Shown here: piece after piece, positions 3,854 to 15,063 of the stretch
Layout: each line of letters begins with the position of its first letter
Position numbering within the stretch: the stretch's first letter is position 1
Assembly (NCBI GenBank): GCA_037045155.1
Contig: JBAOIG010000005.1
Location: forward strand, 257,006-321,005
Length of the DNA: 64,000 bases
Direction of reading: 5' to 3'
Source of the DNA: Thermomicrobiales bacterium
GTDB taxonomy: Bacteria > Chloroflexota > Chloroflexia > Thermomicrobiales > CFX8
The notes under the pieces: model-generated
What the model saw: only the letters and a program-made list of their open reading frames with translations
Told to the model about the DNA's origin: nothing
Database searches by the model: none
Program-made: the position numbers and the translations under genes

Positions 3854-4474
3854 CTACTGACGCAACGCGTCCCGCGAGACAACAGCGCTCTTGTGGACAA
3901 CGAGCGTGCGGGCAGCGCGATCGCCGAGGCGCTGACGGGTGGGAGAGAGCTGGATGATGAGCGCGCCGACGACGCCCGCGAACATGCCATCGACGAGTCG
4001 CAGAAGCGAGCGGACGAGCGCGGGGAGCGGCCGCACCAGCGTGCCATCAAGATGAACGACGCGCAGCCCGACGACCAGCTTGCCGACGGTCGCGCCCCAA
4101 CGCGCCTCCATCAGCCAGGGGTAGAGGATGTAGATGGCGAGCATCACGGCGAGGACGCCGCCGTTTTCGGTGACCTCCTGGACGGTCGGCTCGCGTCCGG
4201 CGGGGAGAAAGTAGGACGCTGGAACCAGCGCGATTATCGTGATGACGATGAGGTCGATGAACCAGGCGATGCCGCGTTGGCCAAGCTGGGCGATGACAAC
4301 GGGCTGGGCGGCCGGCTGCTTCTCAGGGATTGGCGCTGGGGCCGGCTCGTCGGCAAACCCCTCCGGCATCCACTCGCCGCAGTAGCGGCACTTCAGCGCG
4401 ACCGCGTGGATCGGCTTCCCGCAATACGGACACGGCTTCATCGGCGACCTGGCGCTCATGCGCTCCCTGCTCAT
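3854..4474 (-). CDS. RDD-family membrane protein with N-terminal zinc-ribbon
   Basis: CPYCG..CRYCG zinc ribbon, a Pro/Ala linker, then hydrophobic segments and an RDD-type core (WLMEARWGATVGKLVVGLRVV). The start is uncertain (4474, 4459 or 4441). Confidence 0.7.
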   Translation of the reverse strand: MSRERMSARSPMKPCPYCGKPIHAVALKCRYCGEWMPEGFADEPAPAPIPEKQPAAQPVVIAQLGQRGIAWFIDLIVITIIALVPASYFLPAGREPTVQEVTENGGVLAVMLAIYILYPWLMEARWGATVGKLVVGLRVVHLDGTLVRPLPALVRSLLRLVDGMFAGVVGALIIQLSPTRQRLGDRAARTLVVHKSAVVSRDALRQ

Positions 4475-4606
4475 CCCGCTCTCAGCGCCTCACCCACAGT
4501 GGGCGCGGTATGGAGAGATGGTATCAGCGCGGGCGAGTGGCATGCGCGAACTGCCAGGCGGCGGGGCGCAGCCAGTGTCGCCTGGGCTTGGGCGTGCGCA
4601 CGAGCG

Positions 4607-5206
4607 TCAGCGCGTTAGTGAGCCCGACTCTTCCATCGCCGGCATTGATTCTTCGCGCTCCAGCCGAGCGATCGTTGCCACGAGCCAGTCGCGGTCGGCG
4701 TGGCGCATGGCCGTCAGGTGGTCGAGTGCGATGCCAAGATTGAGCTTGTCTCCGTGGGCAGCCACGTCCGGATTCGGCGCCAACAGAGCGTCGAGTCGCG
4801 ACAAGCGCTGGCGTAAGCAGGCGACCGCTTCGTTACGATCGAGGAAATTGATGAGCACAAGACCGATATCTCCGGCGTAGGTCGACTCGTCCGCGGCGGA
4901 CAGGTTTGCTCGAAGCAGATCACGAAAGAGGTCGCGGCCAACCGGCGTGATCGTATAGACCTTCCGCGGTGGGCGATTGCCGGCTTGCTCACTGTGGACC
5001 TCGATGAACCCGGCAGATTCCAAACGGGACAGGAGCGCGTAGGCCGTTGGCTTTTTCATGGTAGCTACATGACAGAGCGTGTTTTCGATGAACTCGTTGA
5101 TTTGATACCCGTGCTGATTCTGCGTCATCAAGACGCCGAGCAGCAGCAGGGCGCGCTCGTCCCAGATCGCCGTGTCGCGGACCATCCTCGGATCACGCTC
5201 GTCCAT
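4607..5206 (-). CDS. PadR-family transcriptional regulator
   Basis: Winged-helix motif LLLLGVLMTQNQHGYQINEFI..KKPTAYALLSRLESAGFIE..RKVYTITPVGRD. The start at 5206 follows AAGGAGG; the ORF-track start at 5230 has no RBS. Confidence 0.85.
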   Translation of the reverse strand: MDERDPRMVRDTAIWDERALLLLGVLMTQNQHGYQINEFIENTLCHVATMKKPTAYALLSRLESAGFIEVHSEQAGNRPPRKVYTITPVGRDLFRDLLRANLSAADESTYAGDIGLVLINFLDRNEAVACLRQRLSRLDALLAPNPDVAAHGDKLNLGIALDHLTAMRHADRDWLVATIARLEREESMPAMEESGSLTR

Positions 5207-5232
5207 CTCTACCTCCTTGATCACCCACATTA

Positions 5233-5295
5233 TAGTCTAGATTGACTAATCATCTCAACACGCCTATACTCAGCACTAATAGTCAAGCGTGACTA
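5233..5295. promoter_or_regulatory. Two copies of palindrome TAGTC-N6-GACTA in the padR / ABC divergent intergenic region (putative PadR operators)
   Basis: TAGTCtagattGACTA at 5233-5248 and TAGTCaagcgtGACTA at 5280-5295. This is the only AT-rich stretch between divergent starts 5206 (-) and 5359 (+). Confidence 0.5.
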
Positions 5296-5358
5296 CACGG
5301 GCCTGCGTATCCATGGTGGAAACGGGGCCGTCGCCTCGGTCGGGAAAGGAATTAGCCT

Positions 5359-6459
5359 GTGTTCCTTGCGCTCCGTGAGATTCGGCACGCCAAGTTGCGG
5401 TTCGCGTTAATCACTGGCGTCATCGTTATGGTATCGAGTCTCGTCTTTATTCTCTCCGGACTTGCCAACGGTCTCAGCGCCGGCAATACCGCCGCGATAG
5501 ATGCGATGCCGATCGATGGGATGGTCATTAGCAACGGGAGTGATTATCTCCTGGATCGCTCTTCCGTCGGGGCCGACAAAGCTCGTGGGATTGCATCCAT
5601 TGCTGGGATTGAGACTGCAGAGCCGCTCGGCGTGTCATCAGCGAGCATCAGGAAGCAAGGCGAGACAAAGCTCCTGGGGGTCTCATTCTTTGGCGTCGTC
5701 CCCGGTGGCGTGCTGGAGCCCCGAATTCAGAAGGGGAATCGCCTCGGCGCGCAAGCGCATGGCGTGGTCATCGACGAGTCGCTCGTCGACGACGGCATCC
5801 GTCTGGGTGACACGTTCACTACCGAGCCAGATGGCGTTGAGCTAACCGTGGTGGGGATCACGACTGGCCAGACCTATCGCCTGGCGCCGGTCGTCTTCAT
5901 GCCACTCGATCTCTGGCAGCAGATCCAGCCAATCCGGCAGGGCACAACGCAGGACGACGTAACGGCCATCGTAGTCCGCGGGTCATCACAAGCGATCGCG
6001 ACTATCCCCGAAACTGTGCCGAATACGATGGTCGGCAGCATCAATCAAATCGCCAACCATATCCCGGGAGAGTCGGAGCAAAACGCCACGTTGCTGCTCA
6101 TCCAGGTCTTCCTGGTGGTTATCGCAGCCGGAATCATCGCCGCGTTCTTCTACATCATCACGTTGCAAAAGATGCCAGAGCTGGGCGTGATGAAGGCGAT
6201 CGGCACCGGCACTGGTTATCTCGCGCGCACGCTTATCACGCAAGTCCTTGCGCTGGCGGTAGTTGGAGTGCTCATCGGGATCTCGATCGCAGACACGCTC
6301 GCGCTCATCATTGGCAACGCGGTCCCGTACAGCATCACCACGCAGCGTATGGCCCTGTTCGGCGGCGTCCTGCTGCTCGTCGCGGTCAGTGGCACGGCAC
6401 TATCGCTCGCGCGGATCGCGCGGGTCGACCCACTGGACGCGATCAACAAGGCTGGGTAA
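5359..6459 (+). CDS. ABC transporter permease, FtsX/MacB-like
   Basis: 366 aa. An N-terminal TM helix is followed by a large extracytoplasmic domain and a C-terminal FtsX-type 3-TM bundle. GTG start after GGAAAGGA. Confidence 0.8.
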   Translation: MFLALREIRHAKLRFALITGVIVMVSSLVFILSGLANGLSAGNTAAIDAMPIDGMVISNGSDYLLDRSSVGADKARGIASIAGIETAEPLGVSSASIRKQGETKLLGVSFFGVVPGGVLEPRIQKGNRLGAQAHGVVIDESLVDDGIRLGDTFTTEPDGVELTVVGITTGQTYRLAPVVFMPLDLWQQIQPIRQGTTQDDVTAIVVRGSSQAIATIPETVPNTMVGSINQIANHIPGESEQNATLLLIQVFLVVIAAGIIAAFFYIITLQKMPELGVMKAIGTGTGYLARTLITQVLALAVVGVLIGISIADTLALIIGNAVPYSITTQRMALFGGVLLLVAVSGTALSLARIARVDPLDAINKAG

Positions 6460-6490
6460 CTGGCTATCAAACGGGCATTGGAGAGCGATC

Positions 6491-7204
6491 ATGACGACGA
6501 ACATCCTTGAGCTGACGAGCATCGACAAGCACTTCGGTGATGGTGACTCCCGCGTTGATGCGCTCCAGGGCATCAATCTGACGGTCGGAATCGGCGAGCT
6601 GGTGGCGCTCATTGGCCCTTCGGGATCGGGCAAGTCGACGCTGTTGTCGATTGCGGGCGCACTCCTGACGCCAACGAACGGGGAGGTTCTCCTCGATGGC
6701 GCCAACATCACGCAACGTTCATCGGCGGAACGAACGCAGCTGCGGCTGGCGAAGTATGGGTTCATCTTCCAGGGGTCGAACCTGATTTCCTACCTGACCG
6801 GGCGGGAGCAGATGCTCTTCATCGCGCACCTCATCGGCTTACCTGGTGCGGAGGCAGAGCGGCGCGCCGACCGCCTGCTGCACGACCTTGGCATGACGGA
6901 TCGTGCTGGCCACTACCCCGAAGAACTCTCGGGCGGGCAGCGCCAACGCATCGCCATCGCGCGGTCGCTGATGAATGATCCGCGCATCATTCTGGCCGAC
7001 GAGCCGACCGCCAGCCTCGACTCAGTTCGCGGGCGACAGGTCGTGGAGATGCTGGCGAAGGAGGTCCACGAGCGTGAGAAGGGCGGCATCCTTGTCACGC
7101 ACGACGAGCGGCTGATCGACCTGTGTGACCGTGTCGTGCGCATCACCGACGGATTGCTCCACGAGGATGAGACGGTGGGCGCGGCGCGGGCCGTGGCTGT
7201 CTGA
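6491..7204 (+). CDS. ABC transporter ATP-binding protein (MacB/LolD-like)
   Basis: Walker A GPSGSGKST, signature LSGGQRQR, Walker B ILADEPT. ATG at 6491; the longer ORF-track N-terminus (from 6263) overlaps the permease gene. Confidence 0.9.
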   Translation: MTTNILELTSIDKHFGDGDSRVDALQGINLTVGIGELVALIGPSGSGKSTLLSIAGALLTPTNGEVLLDGANITQRSSAERTQLRLAKYGFIFQGSNLISYLTGREQMLFIAHLIGLPGAEAERRADRLLHDLGMTDRAGHYPEELSGGQRQRIAIARSLMNDPRIILADEPTASLDSVRGRQVVEMLAKEVHEREKGGILVTHDERLIDLCDRVVRITDGLLHEDETVGAARAVAV

Positions 7205-7373
7205 CCTACCCGCGGCAGCGAGCGATGCTGGGCGCCGTCGCACCTGGCATCGCAGCAACGATCGGACACCCGAAGCACGAGCATGGCTCCATCGGCGACC
7301 TGGCGCTCTTGCGCTCCGTGCTCGTCAGACGGCAGCGCGCCCAGCCGTGCGCGCTGAGGGGATGGTGTCAGGA

Positions 7374-7471
7374 TGGGGAGGGACGGCGCATGGGAGTCGA
7401 ACCCACCTGGGAGGCTCGTCACCCCCCACAGCGGTTTTGAAGACCGAACCCGTCGGTCCGTAAGTGCCCGC
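7374..7471 (-). pseudogene. Decayed tRNA-Sec paralogue or att-type remnant (no acceptor stem)
   Basis: 62 bp (7385-7446) match selC from anticodon stem to T arm with 1 mismatch. The 3' end has a 4-nt insertion (GCGCC-GTCC-CTCCCCA). The 5' third has diverged and cannot pair with the 3' end. Confidence 0.6.
7385..7446. repeat. Direct repeat copy 1 (62 bp, tRNA-Sec core)
   Basis: Identical to 8204-8265 except G7431 versus A8250. The offset is exactly 819 bp, and both copies give the shared peptide MGVEPTWEARHPPQRF in the ORF track. Confidence 0.9.
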
Positions 7472-7614
7472 TATCGTCTGGAATTGCCAGCACAACAGCG
7501 CGTTCAGCACCGCTGCCGTCCACTCTCAACTGCTCTGCTAGCGCAGAGCCGAGGGCTCCCGACCGTGGAAGTCGTGTGGACATTTCAGGCCGACTCCCTC
7601 GTGTGGATTGTCTG

Positions 7615-8082
7615 TCACTCGTAGTACTTCCACTCGCCTTCGAGCCAAAGGCCAACGCCGTCCTTCTGTACAGAGTCAATTATCTTGGGGAGACGATCTA
7701 GCGCCAACTCAAGCACCGCAGGATCGGATGTTGAAATATCGAATCTCGCTCGTCGATGATTATCAAGTTCCACGTATAGCTTCAGAGAAGCTGAAGGCGC
7801 GCCGGTTTCGTTGGCGACTCTATCTGACCACAGCTGATTTCGGGCCCAATCCCATGCGCGCACAACAGCGGGTTTCATTAGGTCGTAGGTTCCATTGCTA
7901 AGCATGCTAAGAGCAAAGTTGACCAGCAGAACCAGTTCTGGTGCACGTCCGCTCGCGCCTCCGACTTGAATCTCTCGATACTGCGCCTTGAACGGAGCCA
8001 GAGCCTCGACCAGCCCATCTGGTGGCATCTCGTACCTGGTGTAGATGATGAGCTGGTCAAGGACTTCGACATTGCGGATCAC
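7615..8082 (-). CDS. Hypothetical protein (155 aa) in the low-GC segment between the two tRNA-Sec copies
   Basis: GTG start preceded by GGGGGAGG at 7 nt. A GCTCTGC-tagc-GCAGAGC hairpin lies downstream. I recognise no motif. GC is about 50% on hand-counted lines. Confidence 0.55.
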   Translation of the reverse strand: MIRNVEVLDQLIIYTRYEMPPDGLVEALAPFKAQYREIQVGGASGRAPELVLLVNFALSMLSNGTYDLMKPAVVRAWDWARNQLWSDRVANETGAPSASLKLYVELDNHRRARFDISTSDPAVLELALDRLPKIIDSVQKDGVGLWLEGEWKYYE

Positions 8083-8196
8083 GTGGTACCTCCCCCTATT
8101 TCACGGGTCACTACCAAGTATCGCTTGCCTGCGTCCTTTCGATCGGGTTCGCTGGTTAGCGACGCGCCATATTCCTATATAAACGCGGAAAACAAG

Positions 8197-8293
8197 TGGC
8201 GAGGGCGCATGGGAGTCGAACCCACCTGGGAGGCTCGTCACCCCCCACAACGGTTTTGAAGACCGCACGAGCCACCGGGCCCGATCCGCCCCC
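8197..8293 (-). tRNA. selC: tRNA-Sec (anticodon UCA)
   Basis: 97 nt: GGGGGCGG-AU-CGGGCC-CGGU-GGCUCG-U-GCGGU-CUUCAAA-ACCGU, a 7-bp extra arm, GUGGG-UUCGACU-CCCAU, GCGCCCUC-G-CCA. It has the 8/5 architecture, a 6-bp D stem with a 4-nt loop, G73 and an encoded CCA. Confidence 0.85.
8204..8265. repeat. Direct repeat copy 2 (62 bp, inside selC)
   Basis: See 7385-7446. Confidence 0.9.
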
Positions 8294-11020: not shown

Positions 11021-12910
11021 ATGAAGGACGACCTGAACGCAACGCCCGACCTTGGGGGATATTCACTCAATAGCCGGCTGACCCGGCGCGGGCTGCTGCG
11101 ACGGGCGCTGGGCGCCGCCGCCGGCCTGACGGTTGTCTCCGGCCTGCTGGCCGCCTGCGGTGGCAGCGCCACGGAATCGACAGCGACGACAGCCGCGCCG
11201 GCCGCCACACAGGCCCCCGGCTCAGCCGGAACGCCGACAACGGCCGCGACCGAGGCCGCGACCGAGGCGGCAAGCCCGGTGACGGGGAGCTCCCCGGTTG
11301 GGTCGCCATCAACCGGCGGCGGCATCCGCACCGAGGGCGGCGACCGGCTGATGGGCAAGACCATCGAGGAGCCGAAGAATACCGGCGGGACCCTGATTCA
11401 GGCGGACAGTCTCGACATCCGCACGCTCAACCCGGTTCTCCAAAACGACGTGCCCTCCGGATACGTCATCTCCCTCATCATGCAGAGCATGATCGAGACG
11501 AATCCGGACACGCTGGAGCCGACCGGCAACCTCGCCGTGGCCTGGGAGGCAGCGCCGGACGCGACAGAGTGGACGTTCTTCCTCCGCGATGGCGTGCGCT
11601 GGCAAGACGGGAAGCCGTTCACTGCGCAGGACGTCAAGTTCACTTACGACCTGTTCATGAATCCCGAGAGCGGCTCGAACCAGACCTCCGGTCTGGCAGC
11701 GAAGATCGCCTCAATCGATGTGGTCGATGACTTCACCGTCGACTTCAAGCTGAAGCAGGGGGTGGTTGACGCCCCGATCGACCTCGGTAGCTACGCAATC
11801 CTTGCGAACCACATCTGGAAGGATGTCGCCCCATCAGCTGTCCAGCAGGACCCGGGCTCGACCGGCGCGGACCCGTCGCGCGTGGTCGGGACCGGGCCAT
11901 TCAAGTTCAAGGAGTGGGTCACCGGTGACCATGTCACGCTGGTGAAGAATGACGACTACTGGGATGGCAAGGTCGTACTTGATGAGTGGATCCTCAAGAT
12001 CGTCCCAGACACAGCGTCGGGGATTCAGCAGCTGAAGACCGGCGAGATTGACATTTTCCCGGGCGTCGATGCCGGGCAGGTTCCGGATTTCAAGAACACC
12101 GATGTGAATATCGTCATCTACCCGCAACTGAGCTTCTCGTTCTACGGCACGAACCTCGACGAGACAAAGTCGACGAAGTTCCAGGACGCACGAGTGCGCC
12201 AGGCGCTGATGTACGGGCACGACCGGCCGGCCATCGCCGAGAACATCTATTTCGGTTACGCCGAGGTAGCGGTTGGGACGCTGCCGACGATGTCGTGGGC
12301 GGCGAATCCAAAGGGCATCAAACCAGAGCTGCGCTACGACTACGACGTGGATAAGGCGAACCAACTGCTAGACGAGGCCGGCTGGGTGGTTGGCGCTGAC
12401 GGCATTCGAGCCAAGGACGGCCAGCGGATGTCGTTCACGATGTATGGCATCTCGGGGAACAACATCGCGGTACAGACACTGCAGGCTATGCAGGCGGACT
12501 GGAAGAAGATCGGTGTCGAGATGACGCCGCAGCCAGAACCATTCCAGCAACTCGTCTCACGAATCACCGAGACGTTTGATTTCGAGATATTCCTGGTCGG
12601 CTTCAGTTGGGACGCAACGCCAGATCAGTCGCCGATGTGGGCCTGCGATTCGTACAAGGCCGGATTCAACATGGTCAAGTACTGCAACCCGAAGGTGGAC
12701 GACCTGCTGAAGAAGGCGGCGGCAGAGCCGGACAAGGCGAAGCGCATCGAGCTCTATACCGAGTTTCAGAACGTGCTACTGGCCGATGTCCCGATGGGGG
12801 TGACATTCTTCGGCCAAGGCATCACTGGTGTGAGCAAGCGCGTGCACAACTTCTTTGCAAACCAGCAGAACACGCGGTTCAACGCTGAGACCTGGTGGGT
12901 CGAGAAGTAG
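11021..12910 (+). CDS. ABC transporter substrate-binding lipoprotein, family 5 (peptide/nickel, OppA/DppA-like), Tat-type signal
   Basis: SRLTRRGLLRRALGAAAGLTVVSGLLAACGG (twin-Arg plus lipobox), an Ala/Thr/Pro linker, then the SBP_bac_5 body. ATG at 11021 follows GGGAGGA. Confidence 0.88.
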   Translation: MKDDLNATPDLGGYSLNSRLTRRGLLRRALGAAAGLTVVSGLLAACGGSATESTATTAAPAATQAPGSAGTPTTAATEAATEAASPVTGSSPVGSPSTGGGIRTEGGDRLMGKTIEEPKNTGGTLIQADSLDIRTLNPVLQNDVPSGYVISLIMQSMIETNPDTLEPTGNLAVAWEAAPDATEWTFFLRDGVRWQDGKPFTAQDVKFTYDLFMNPESGSNQTSGLAAKIASIDVVDDFTVDFKLKQGVVDAPIDLGSYAILANHIWKDVAPSAVQQDPGSTGADPSRVVGTGPFKFKEWVTGDHVTLVKNDDYWDGKVVLDEWILKIVPDTASGIQQLKTGEIDIFPGVDAGQVPDFKNTDVNIVIYPQLSFSFYGTNLDETKSTKFQDARVRQALMYGHDRPAIAENIYFGYAEVAVGTLPTMSWAANPKGIKPELRYDYDVDKANQLLDEAGWVVGADGIRAKDGQRMSFTMYGISGNNIAVQTLQAMQADWKKIGVEMTPQPEPFQQLVSRITETFDFEIFLVGFSWDATPDQSPMWACDSYKAGFNMVKYCNPKVDDLLKKAAAEPDKAKRIELYTEFQNVLLADVPMGVTFFGQGITGVSKRVHNFFANQQNTRFNAETWWVEK

Positions 12911-13164: not shown

Positions 13165-15063
13165 ATGGGGGATGATTCGAGCTCATCGTCAGATCAGTCA
13201 GGGTATTCACTCAATAGCCGGCTGACCCGACGCGGGCTGCTGCGACGGGCACTGGGCGCCGCCGCCGGCCTGACGGTTGTCTCCGGCCTGCTGGCCGCCT
13301 GCGGTGGCAGCGCCACGGAGTCGACAGCGACGACAGCCGCGCCGGCCGCCACACAGGCCCCCGGCTCAGCCGGAACGCCGACAACGGCCGCGCCGGCCGC
13401 GACCGAGGCCGCGACCGAGGCGGCAAGCCCAGTGACGGGGAGCTCCCCGGTCGGGTCGCCATCAACCGGCGGCGGCATCCGCACCGAGGGCGGCGACCGG
13501 CTGATGGGCAAGACCATCGAGGAGCCGAAGAATACCGGCGGGACACTGATTCAGGCGGACAGTCTCGACATCCGCACGCTCAACCCGCTGCTGCAGAATG
13601 ACTCGCCGTCGTGGAACGTGATCTCGCTCTACATGCAGAGCATGATCGAGACGAACCCGGACACGCTGGAGCCGACCGGCAACCTCGCCGTGGCCTGGGA
13701 GGCAGCGCCGGACGCGACAGAGTGGACGTTCTTCCTCCGCGATGGCGTGCGCTGGCACGATGGGAAGCCATTCACCGCGCAGGATGTGAAGCTGACCTAC
13801 GACCTGTTCATGAATCCCGAGAGCGGCTCGAACCAGACCTCCAGTCTGACATCGAAGATCGCCTCGGTCGATGTGATCGATGACTTCACCGTCGACTTCA
13901 AGCTGAAGCTCGGAGTCGTTGACGCGCCGATCGACCTCGGGGCCGCGTGGATCTTCGCGAATCACATCTGGAAGGACACCCCTCCGGCGAGCATCCAGCA
14001 GGATCCGGGCTCGACCGGGGCGGACCCGTCGCGCGTGGTTGGGACCGGGCCATTCAAGTTCAAGGAGTGGATCACCGGCGACCATGTCACGATGGTGCGC
14101 AACGACGACTTCTGGGATGGCAAGGTGGCGCTCGACGAGGTGATCTATAAGGTCGTCCCGGACTCGGCGTCGGGGATTCAGCAGCTGAAGACCGGTGAGG
14201 TTGATATCTTCGCTGGCGTCGATGGCTCGCAGGTTCCGGACTTCAAGAACACCGACGTGAATATCGCCGTCTACCCGCAGCTCAGCTTCATCTTCTATGC
14301 AACCAACCTGGACGAGACGAAGACGACCAAGTTCCAGGATGTGCAAGTGCGGCAGGCGCTGATGTACGCGCTCGACCGGGAGGCGATCGTCGAGAACATC
14401 TACTTCGGCTACGCCGAGGTGGCGGTCGGGACCATTCCGACGATGTCCTGGGCGGCAAACGCGAAGGGCATCAAGCCCGAGCTGCGCTACGACTACGACG
14501 TGGATACGGCCAAGAAGCTGCTCGACGAGGCCGGCTGGGCGCCAGGCGCCGACGGCGTCCGGGCCAAGGACGGCCAGCGGTTGTCGTTCACGATGTACGG
14601 CATCGGCGGCAACAACATTCATATTCAGATGTTGCAGGCCATGCAGGAGTACTGGAAGGTTGTCGGCGTCGAGATGACGCCGCAGCCAGAACCGTTCCAG
14701 CAGCTGGTCTCGCGCATCACGGAGACGTTCGACTTCGAAACGTTCCTGGTCGGCTTTGGCTGGGACGCGACACCTGACCAGTCCGCGATGTGGGCCTGCG
14801 ACTCGTACAAGGCCGGCTTCAACATGGTCAAGTACTGCAACCCGAAGGTGGACGATCTGCTGAAGAAGGCGGCGGCAGAACCGGACCAGAAGAAGCGGAT
14901 CGAGCTCTACACCGAGTTCCAGAATGCGCTTCTGGCTGACGTCCCGATGGGTGTGACGATCTTCAGCCAGGGCATCACCGGCGTGAACAAGCGCGTGCAC
15001 AACTACTTCCCGAATCAGCAGAACACGCGGTTCAACGCTGAGACCTGGTGGGTCGAGAAGTAG
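13165..15063 (+). CDS. ABC transporter substrate-binding lipoprotein, family 5, tandem paralogue of 11021..12910
   Basis: Same Tat/lipobox signal and linker, and the two proteins are colinear throughout. ATG at 13165 follows GAGGAGGA. The ORF-track N-terminus (from 12895) is upstream read-in. Confidence 0.88.
   Translation: MGDDSSSSSDQSGYSLNSRLTRRGLLRRALGAAAGLTVVSGLLAACGGSATESTATTAAPAATQAPGSAGTPTTAAPAATEAATEAASPVTGSSPVGSPSTGGGIRTEGGDRLMGKTIEEPKNTGGTLIQADSLDIRTLNPLLQNDSPSWNVISLYMQSMIETNPDTLEPTGNLAVAWEAAPDATEWTFFLRDGVRWHDGKPFTAQDVKLTYDLFMNPESGSNQTSSLTSKIASVDVIDDFTVDFKLKLGVVDAPIDLGAAWIFANHIWKDTPPASIQQDPGSTGADPSRVVGTGPFKFKEWITGDHVTMVRNDDFWDGKVALDEVIYKVVPDSASGIQQLKTGEVDIFAGVDGSQVPDFKNTDVNIAVYPQLSFIFYATNLDETKTTKFQDVQVRQALMYALDREAIVENIYFGYAEVAVGTIPTMSWAANAKGIKPELRYDYDVDTAKKLLDEAGWAPGADGVRAKDGQRLSFTMYGIGGNNIHIQMLQAMQEYWKVVGVEMTPQPEPFQQLVSRITETFDFETFLVGFGWDATPDQSAMWACDSYKAGFNMVKYCNPKVDDLLKKAAAEPDQKKRIELYTEFQNALLADVPMGVTIFSQGITGVNKRVHNYFPNQQNTRFNAETWWVEK

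Follow-up and report, generated by a model that had tools for sequence, protein, structure and literature searches.

How did a short, low-GC islet carrying a single orphan gene come to lie between an intact selenocysteine tRNA gene (tRNA-Sec, selC) and a second, incomplete copy of the same gene? The locus belongs to a Thermomicrobiales bacterium and is located in the stretch of 64,000 nucleotides analysed here (contig JBAOIG010000005.1 of assembly GCA_037045155.1), hereafter called the window. The islet is probably an integrase-less remnant of an integrative element that targeted tRNA-Sec, comparable to a cis-mobilizable element (CIME) and located in an accretion hotspot. A preliminary description of this DNA had proposed such a stripped, selC-integrated remnant with repeats of the attachment (att) type and no integrase, and the proposal is supported by the distal position of the repeat, its sharp edges, the foreign composition of the islet and its presence or absence among strains.

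The functional tRNA-Sec gene, with a TCA anticodon and an encoded CCA, occupies positions 8197-8293 on the minus strand. It is the sole tRNA-SeC(tca) call of ARAGORN in the window and scores 75.2 bits against the Rfam model RF01852, the cut-off of which is 47. The same or almost the same sequence is present in the relatives L009, L016 and L015 (L001 to L037 are the labels of the comparison loci and contigs). The gene consists of a 5' third (8269-8293) and a core (8201-8268), and this core is present twice. A repeat search of the window showed that 7382-7449 equals 8201-8268, also on the minus strand, over 68 nt with three mismatches (96% identity) and an offset of 819. The 62-nt near-identical core reported earlier with this same offset, which contains one mismatch, is nested within the 68-nt repeat, and it was borne out by the repeat search, by Rfam and by shuffling: a 22-mer of the core has two exact occurrences in the 64 kb and none in 100 shuffles.

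Read on the tRNA strand, the repeat begins in the 5' strand of the anticodon stem, takes in the long extra arm and the T arm, and ends in the 3' strand of the acceptor stem. The shared block therefore corresponds to two-thirds of the tRNA, on its 3' side. The minus-strand orientation of selC places the second copy downstream of the tRNA 3' end, and not upstream of the gene as initially described. The distal side of the tRNA 3' end is where displaced att fragments are expected. In this arrangement, selC would contain the attL-side copy, whereas the displaced fragment, designated T' (7382-7471, minus strand), would be attR-like. T' comprises the core and, at 7450-7471, 22 nt of arm DNA. It scores 38.7 bits against RF01852, below the cut-off, exhibits non-canonical acceptor pairs and receives no ARAGORN call in the scan of the window. 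Its T arm and extra arm are intact in the Rfam alignment, and the cloverleaf with an acceptor stem of 8-9 bp that characterizes a tRNA-Sec is lacking. The broken acceptor stem agrees with the earlier statement that this copy cannot form one.

The DNA between the two copies differs from its surroundings. The GC content of 7450-8196 is 0.553, compared with a window mean of 0.647, 0.65 in the left flank and 0.70 in the right flank, and this interior is the lowest-GC 747-bp stretch in the window. The low GC noted at the outset is thus real, but the figures then given, 50% against 70-75%, do not hold. The GC content at third codon positions (GC3) shows the same trend, with 0.564 for the only gene of the islet and 0.74-0.87 for the neighbouring genes. 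By these measures of composition, the islet interior is foreign.

The gene in question, ORF155 (7615-8082, minus strand), encodes a 155-aa orphan protein from a GTG start. It is separated from the tRNA 3' end by a 115-nt spacer (8083-8196, minus strand), which holds a ribosome-binding site, GGGGGAGG, at 8089-8096, 6 nt upstream of the start. No sigma-70-like promoter was found in this spacer on the ORF155 strand. As ORF155 is co-oriented with selC and the spacer exhibits no promoter-like site, transcription by read-through from selC is plausible. On the other side of the gene, the 143 nt at 7472-7614 (minus strand) form a structured 3' untranslated region (UTR) or element arm, with hairpins including GCUCUGC-GCUA-GCAGAGC, a minimum free energy of -58.8 kcal/mol and a z-score of -2.30 upon folding; they contain no T-run terminator. 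The single 155-aa ORF, the ribosome-binding site and the hairpin described previously were all confirmed, the last as part of this structured tail.

The locus is polymorphic among close relatives. The neighbouring VWA protein is 85% identical to a protein of a Thermomicrobiales metagenome-assembled genome (MAG; L002). At 100% identity, it is found in a 'Chloroflexi bacterium' MAG and in 24-29 wastewater contigs. ORF155 and T' occur together in four independent assemblies (the window, L001, L014 and L021), so the two-copy arrangement is not an assembly artefact. A restriction-modification (R-M) allele is present in at least 10 contigs (L005, equal to L022, L008, and L023-L030), whose flanks are 99% identical and whose VWA protein is 100% identical. 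Its insert, of 3.9-4.5 kb, contains an IS5-type DDE fragment, a 273-aa ORF, a Dcm C5 cytosine methyltransferase (PF00145, 8e-67) and an HhH-GPD protein. The R-M island meets the host flank at window position 7384/7385 (L005/L008), which is the 3' edge of the displaced core. Position 7384 is a shared breakpoint, as a hypervariable patch also begins there: the window and L001 exhibit 39 differences within 7317-7384, compared with three in the 810-nt islet (99.6% identical). An orphan gene and an R-M system are thereby found as alternative cassettes at one tRNA site in one wastewater population, which makes this locus a clean natural case.

Beyond this population, a metagenome scan with the tRNA core yielded 16 loci, and 20-odd relatives each exhibit different DNA directly after the CCA of tRNA-Sec, often with defence genes. 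In the relatives scanned for cargo, a type III res subunit was found in L004, an HSDR_N_2 protein in L003 and a HEPN protein in L018. The simplest state is observed in L036, but in another species. The comparison of the selC locus in relatives, which had been suggested as a check, thus revealed a site occupied by varied DNA, with ORF155 and T' absent from the R-M strains. This is the opposite of an arrangement in which all relatives carry the two copies and the ORF with plain composition, which had been considered as the refuting outcome.

Two further observations were made on these alleles. The R-M alleles differ from each other by a segment of ~640 bp (L005 3000-3660 versus L008 70-100), which encodes a 153-aa putative lipoprotein and is bounded by CTCCTAGACGG and CGCCTAGAGGG; it adjoins the IS5-type DDE fragment and may be an IS-mediated indel. 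In L017, positions 649-737 hold the 3' part of a tRNA-Sec from the anticodon loop on, joined to unrelated IS-like DNA (23.9 bits with Rfam). It may be an att fragment, but we did not retain it as an independent att site: the contig measures only 1.5 kb, the neighbouring DNA is IS-like, and the fragment may instead be a tRNA gene disrupted by an IS.

A rival explanation is exchange between strains. In such a scenario, the allele with ORF155 and T' came from another strain by homologous recombination, on the VWA/tRNA side and on the side of the ABC transporter genes and the B' flank described below, and T' would be an old scar from another lineage within a passively swapped cassette. The existence of two or three alleles with 98-100% identical flanks in the same wastewater projects is consistent with this scenario, as are the mosaic patch at 7317-7384 next to an almost identical islet and the absence of an integrase from the window and the loci searched. 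However, a homologous swap leaves the origin of T' unexplained and still requires a site-specific event. Moreover, only 1-3 of 62-68 positions distinguish T' from selC, and the scar is therefore young. For these reasons, we consider a homologous swap unlikely as the explanation of the islet.

The edges of T' bear on its origin. At the 5' edge, identity with selC falls from 96% to about 59% across one or two bases, with mismatches at 3 of 68 nt within the core and at 9 of the 22 nt directly outside it. At the 3' edge, the window reads GCGCC followed by GTCCCT, whereas the 98%-identical contigs L001 and L021 read GCGCCCTCGC followed by TCC. In these two contigs, the tRNA identity extends to the discriminator region, which means that the complete tRNA 3' part, ending in GCGCCCTCGC, is present. 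Because the identity continues there, the GTCC insertion inferred in the preliminary description corresponds to a local difference in a hypervariable junction. Such step-like edges fit site-specific recombination, and would not be produced by the uniform decay of a duplicated gene.

The preliminary description had also offered a tandem selC duplication that captured foreign DNA. In such a case, the whole gene would have been duplicated, foreign DNA would have been inserted between the copies, and one copy would have decayed while its core was maintained by gene conversion. This possibility would be favoured by the 22 nt located 5' of the core, which match the 5' third of the tRNA at 13 positions in register (P about 0.003 for this single register), by the end-to-end alignment of T' in Rfam, and by the second copy found in L018, which is tRNA-like over its full length with a uniform 80% identity. 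However, the P value of the 13/22 match rises to about 0.04 when nine shifts are allowed, and a gapped local-alignment test gives the 5' part a score under the background mean, which is not significant. The tRNA-like character attributed to this copy outside its core is accordingly marginal. The same applies to the compensatory D-arm changes proposed for T', which we rejected because the resemblance in the 5' arm is marginal and part of the hairpin coincides with the anticodon stem. Furthermore, the decay is step-like rather than uniform, the copy and the ORF come and go as a unit between strains, and the old downstream flank (B'a) comes after T', as it would after a displaced 3' fragment. A tandem duplication is therefore disfavoured and, in our view, very unlikely. 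Judging from the sequence, T' is a displaced tRNA fragment rather than a decayed whole tRNA, and we suggest that 7382-7471 be annotated as a tRNA-Sec fragment (att scar) rather than as a tRNA duplicate that became a pseudogene.

It is highly improbable that T' is a functional RNA element, either a tRNA-like signal that governs the 3' processing or the stability of the ORF155 transcript or an additional tRNA of the suppressor type: it lies on the ORF155 strand, 143 nt beyond the stop of this gene and after a structured UTR, and retains its T arm and extra arm, but it has no acceptor stem, is below the Rfam cut-off, is not called by ARAGORN, carries two core substitutions that are not compensatory, and has no equivalent after the gene in the family loci L019, L020 and L037.

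The integration of an element into selC, which remains the preferred explanation, could have proceeded as follows. The crossover, made by a site-specific recombinase (probably a tyrosine integrase), would have taken place close to the selC anticodon stem. A working tRNA-Sec (8197-8293) would have been restored by the 3' two-thirds that the element itself brought along, and the original 3' two-thirds would have been displaced to the far end of the insert (7382-7449). The integration genes would later have been lost, or the cassette would always have been mobilised in trans, which would leave ORF155 as one expressed-looking cargo gene. We observed the repeat with its anatomy, a foreign composition, polymorphism between strains, no integrase and a hypervariable locus; the recombinase type, the order of these events, the identity of the original copy and a possible present-day mobility are what we infer from them. 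No recombinase is encoded in the islet, since its sole ORF is without a domain. No tyrosine-recombinase box-II motif was observed in the real frames of the window or of the comparison loci, and no integrase Pfam match was obtained in the cargo of the relatives.

Several observations weigh against this explanation. No integrase-bearing version of the element was found next to tRNA-Sec in the 37 loci. The tRNA-Sec core and the ORF155 profile have no match in IMG/VR, and ORF155 has none in phages or plasmids; the search for an integrase-bearing islet elsewhere, suggested in the preliminary description, was thus negative in all these collections. Nor was an empty attB allele observed among the 37 loci, and searches for one with the tRNA core in metagenomes and through the identical and the 78-86% relatives of the VWA protein were likewise negative. 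The R-M allele has neither ORF155 nor a detectable displaced fragment (P = 0.40), despite ending at the same nucleotide, and therefore not every occupant of the site shows the signature. Finally, the ~27 nt found right after the tRNA (8170-8196) are common to the sister species L002, whose DNA beyond this point is unrelated in the alignment. If this stretch is a native trailer, the left border of the foreign DNA would be near 8170 and not inside the tRNA. Degenerate tRNA fragments were also considered at the distal junctions of the R-M allele, L018 and L036 and were rejected (P = 0.40, 0.18 and 0.18, respectively).

With regard to the cargo, ORF155 has no match in Pfam, NCBIfam, PHROG or PADLOC or among PDB sequences, in line with the earlier remark that the protein contains no recognisable motif. 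A HMMER search over 1.84 billion representatives identified two relatives, P0002 (32%, E = 2.6e-15) and P0003 (33%, E = 1.3e-10), and a profile search identified one further homolog, P0091. These three homologs exhibit 31-36% identity, and there are four ORF155 clusters worldwide in total. By homology, ORF155 is a real but tiny protein family, in which Y14-T15, VGGA(S/T)G-x2-PE, K70, W77 and W146, among others, are invariant. Two AlphaFold (AF2) models were obtained, with pLDDT values of 67 and 73 and pTM values of 0.69 and 0.76. The fold search of both models against PDB and BFVD returned nothing below E = 0.066, with a best TM of 0.41. The fold names obtained, XPF/PD-(D/E)XK and then MIF/tautomerase, were discarded, as they are sub-threshold and the top names changed between models. 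The sequence and fold searches that had been recommended for the 155-aa protein thus gave no match in PDB, BFVD, phages or plasmids.

The genomic context of the four family members is as follows. In the window, ORF155 adjoins tRNA-Sec. P0003 is located 1.1 kb from a tRNA-Ser, beside an IstB fragment, and P0091 is located between tRNA-Gly and tRNA-Trp in an array of 13 tRNAs with other low-GC ORFs. P0002 stands alone between hrcA and prfB, in a patch of low GC. Three of the four family members are thus within 1.1 kb of a tRNA gene. As a rough estimate, genes at so short a distance from a tRNA make up only a few percent of the total, and this association is therefore unlikely to be due to chance. 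The proximity to tRNA genes fits the cargo of tRNA-targeting elements, and the locus draws attention to a tiny protein family without domain or fold assignment that is non-randomly associated with tRNA genes. A stronger proposal would be that ORF155 represents a novel protein family, carried as single-gene cargo and specialised for integration sites at tRNA genes, possibly an unrecognised defence or addiction module of one gene, and that selC and T' delimit a minimal integrase-less cassette which is still exchanged in trans at tRNA-Sec. A defence or addiction role could be envisaged because ORF155 is the allelic alternative to an R-M island in a defence-rich hotspot. Nevertheless, we regard this proposal as a whole as speculative and rather improbable. 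The 13-tRNA array of P0091 (L037 9842-13626) is interspersed with low-GC ORFs, namely P0091, a DUF4145 protein and a 224-aa ORF, with GC down to 0.40, and it contains a possible tRNA-like remnant at 12457-12497.

The islet is one part of a longer variable interval that extends from selC to an RDD gene. Directly beyond T', 7205-7381 (minus strand) comprise the flank B'a and an RDD' pseudogene (MEPCSCFGCPI..., ending in a stop), a ~78% paralog of the upstream region and the first ~25 codons of RDD. The paralogy covers ~165 nt at ~78% identity (7205-7381 versus 4400-4540; 4409-4475 versus 7260-7326 in a self-BLAST), and the translations contain ERKSARSPMEPCSCFGCPI before the stop in RDD' and MSRERMSARSPMKPCPYCGKPI in the intact RDD gene. 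The far border of the interval, at 3854-4527 (minus strand), consists of the landmark B'b and the intact RDD/zinc-ribbon gene (3854-4474; Pfam RDD, 1.4e-19). The landmark CTGAYACCATC is present twice in the window, as CTGACACCATC from 7371 and as CTGATACCATC from 4527, and it precedes RDD in every lineage (L012, L018, L036 and L001), where it closes the variable interval.

The two B' copies bracket a module (4607-7204) that encodes PadR (4607-5230, minus strand), an FtsX permease (5359-6459, plus strand) and an ABC ATPase (6491-7204, plus strand), as assigned from Pfam, synteny and GC. The GC content of this module, 0.606, is below that of its surroundings. The module occurs next to selC in L003, L018 and L036 but is missing from L012, and may thus be an island of greater age. 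We did not accept it as a proven one, as the support from its lower GC, its absence in L012 and the bracketing by B' is circumstantial. A possible third remnant of a tRNA-Sec 3' end, T'' (4532-4556, minus strand), heavily decayed, is located directly upstream of the second B' landmark. The 40 nt upstream of this landmark, compared with the last 32 nt of the tRNA, give a score of 61 (P = 0.009 with the position preset, against 6396 random 40-mers). Rfam detects nothing at T'' and the unrestricted local-alignment test is not significant, which is why T'' is listed only as possible; it may be a third, older tRNA scar.

The order of these parts differs between lineages. In the direction of the tRNA, the window exhibits selC, ORF155, T', B'a with RDD', the ABC ATPase, FtsX, PadR, and B'b with RDD. 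L036 exhibits selC, 210 bp, the ABC ATPase, FtsX, PadR, and B' with RDD. L018, which is conspecific with L036 (96-99%), has the same order with, in addition, a second tRNA-Sec-like copy and a HEPN island between PadR and B'. This second copy (6599-6687) is 80% identical over 89 nt, retains the TCA anticodon loop and the CCA, and scores 26 bits. Its distance from the real gene is 3 kb, and it forms the border of a two-gene island (a 205-aa ORF and HEPN) that is absent from L036. In L012, selC is followed by 3.45 kb of other ORFs and then B', with no ABC module. Since these orders differ, the selC-RDD interval is a hotspot with accumulated layers. In a nested history, the ABC module would have arrived first, carrying B'a and RDD' as a hitch-hiked flank, and ORF155 would have come later.

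On the other side of selC, the DNA that separates the VWA gene from the 5' end of tRNA-Sec differs between conspecifics, with 1.0 kb in L018 (2433-3456) and 0.63 kb in L036 (3184-3814), where it contains a small ORF with zinc-ribbon and transmembrane parts. Variability thus extends to both sides of selC. Elsewhere in the window, 11057-11823 and 13201-13976 form a 777-nt direct repeat with 92% identity, which looks like the 5' parts of two SBP_bac_5 peptide-binding protein paralogs.

Genomic islands integrated at tRNA and tmRNA genes are reportedly the subject of a 2002 article by Williams (NAR 30:866). According to the Islander rule, integration splits a tRNA gene and the island DNA restores it, so that the restored gene and the displaced fragment mark the two ends; about half of the catalogued islands use an anticodon-centred site (PMC4383910). 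The islet shares with them the regenerated tRNA gene (8197-8293), the displaced 3' fragment in the same orientation (7382-7449), the anticodon-centred att class, a foreign composition and a variable presence among strains. It differs from them by the lack of the integrase gene that Islander islands require inside, and its 0.8 kb is far below usual island sizes.

selC is an integration hotspot in enterobacteria (PMC6174562). The enterobacterial selC islands (LEE, SHI-2 and the retronphage phiR73) share with the islet the target gene and the alternative, strain-specific inserts. In contrast, they belong to an unrelated phylum, measure 3-60 kb, encode P4-type integrases and have a short repeat located right at the 3' terminus of selC; no such size, integrase or repeat was found here.

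The closest class of elements is that of the CIMEs, which keep att ends without integration genes and can take part in tandem accretion (PMC5704250). The islet likewise keeps att-type ends, with 1-3 mismatches, and contains no recombinase or transfer gene; no autonomous integrative and conjugative element (ICE), integrative and mobilizable element (IME) or prophage with related att sites and a cognate integrase could be identified in IMG/VR, in phages or plasmids, or next to tRNA-Sec in the 37 loci. CIME19258 and CIME302 of Streptococcus thermophilus adjoin ICESt1 and ICESt3 (Pavlovic et al. 2004, cited in PMC5704250). They share with the islet attL/attR-type repeats at the 3' end of the target, the lack of integration and transfer genes, and a site of accretion. 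The islet is unlike them in that it has no known autonomous relative or cognate integrase, targets tRNA-Sec and not the 3' end of a protein gene, and contains a single gene in 0.8 kb.

A precedent in the Chloroflexi is provided by the tandem ssrA islands of Dehalococcoides; 15 of them lack an integration module, and for these a CIME nature was proposed (PMC3146451). As in the islet, these low-GC islands are located downstream of a single-copy small-RNA gene and exhibit direct repeats of its 3' end (PMC3146451). They differ by their tmRNA target, a 20-bp repeat, the serine integrase DsiB and rdhA cargo (PMC3146451), whereas the islet exhibits a repeat of 62-75 nt from the anticodon stem of tRNA-Sec and no recombinase of whatever type was seen. 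The islet reveals no new mechanism and is ordinary in kind, but it extends to the Thermomicrobiales and the Chloroflexi a selC-type hotspot behaviour known mainly from enterobacteria.

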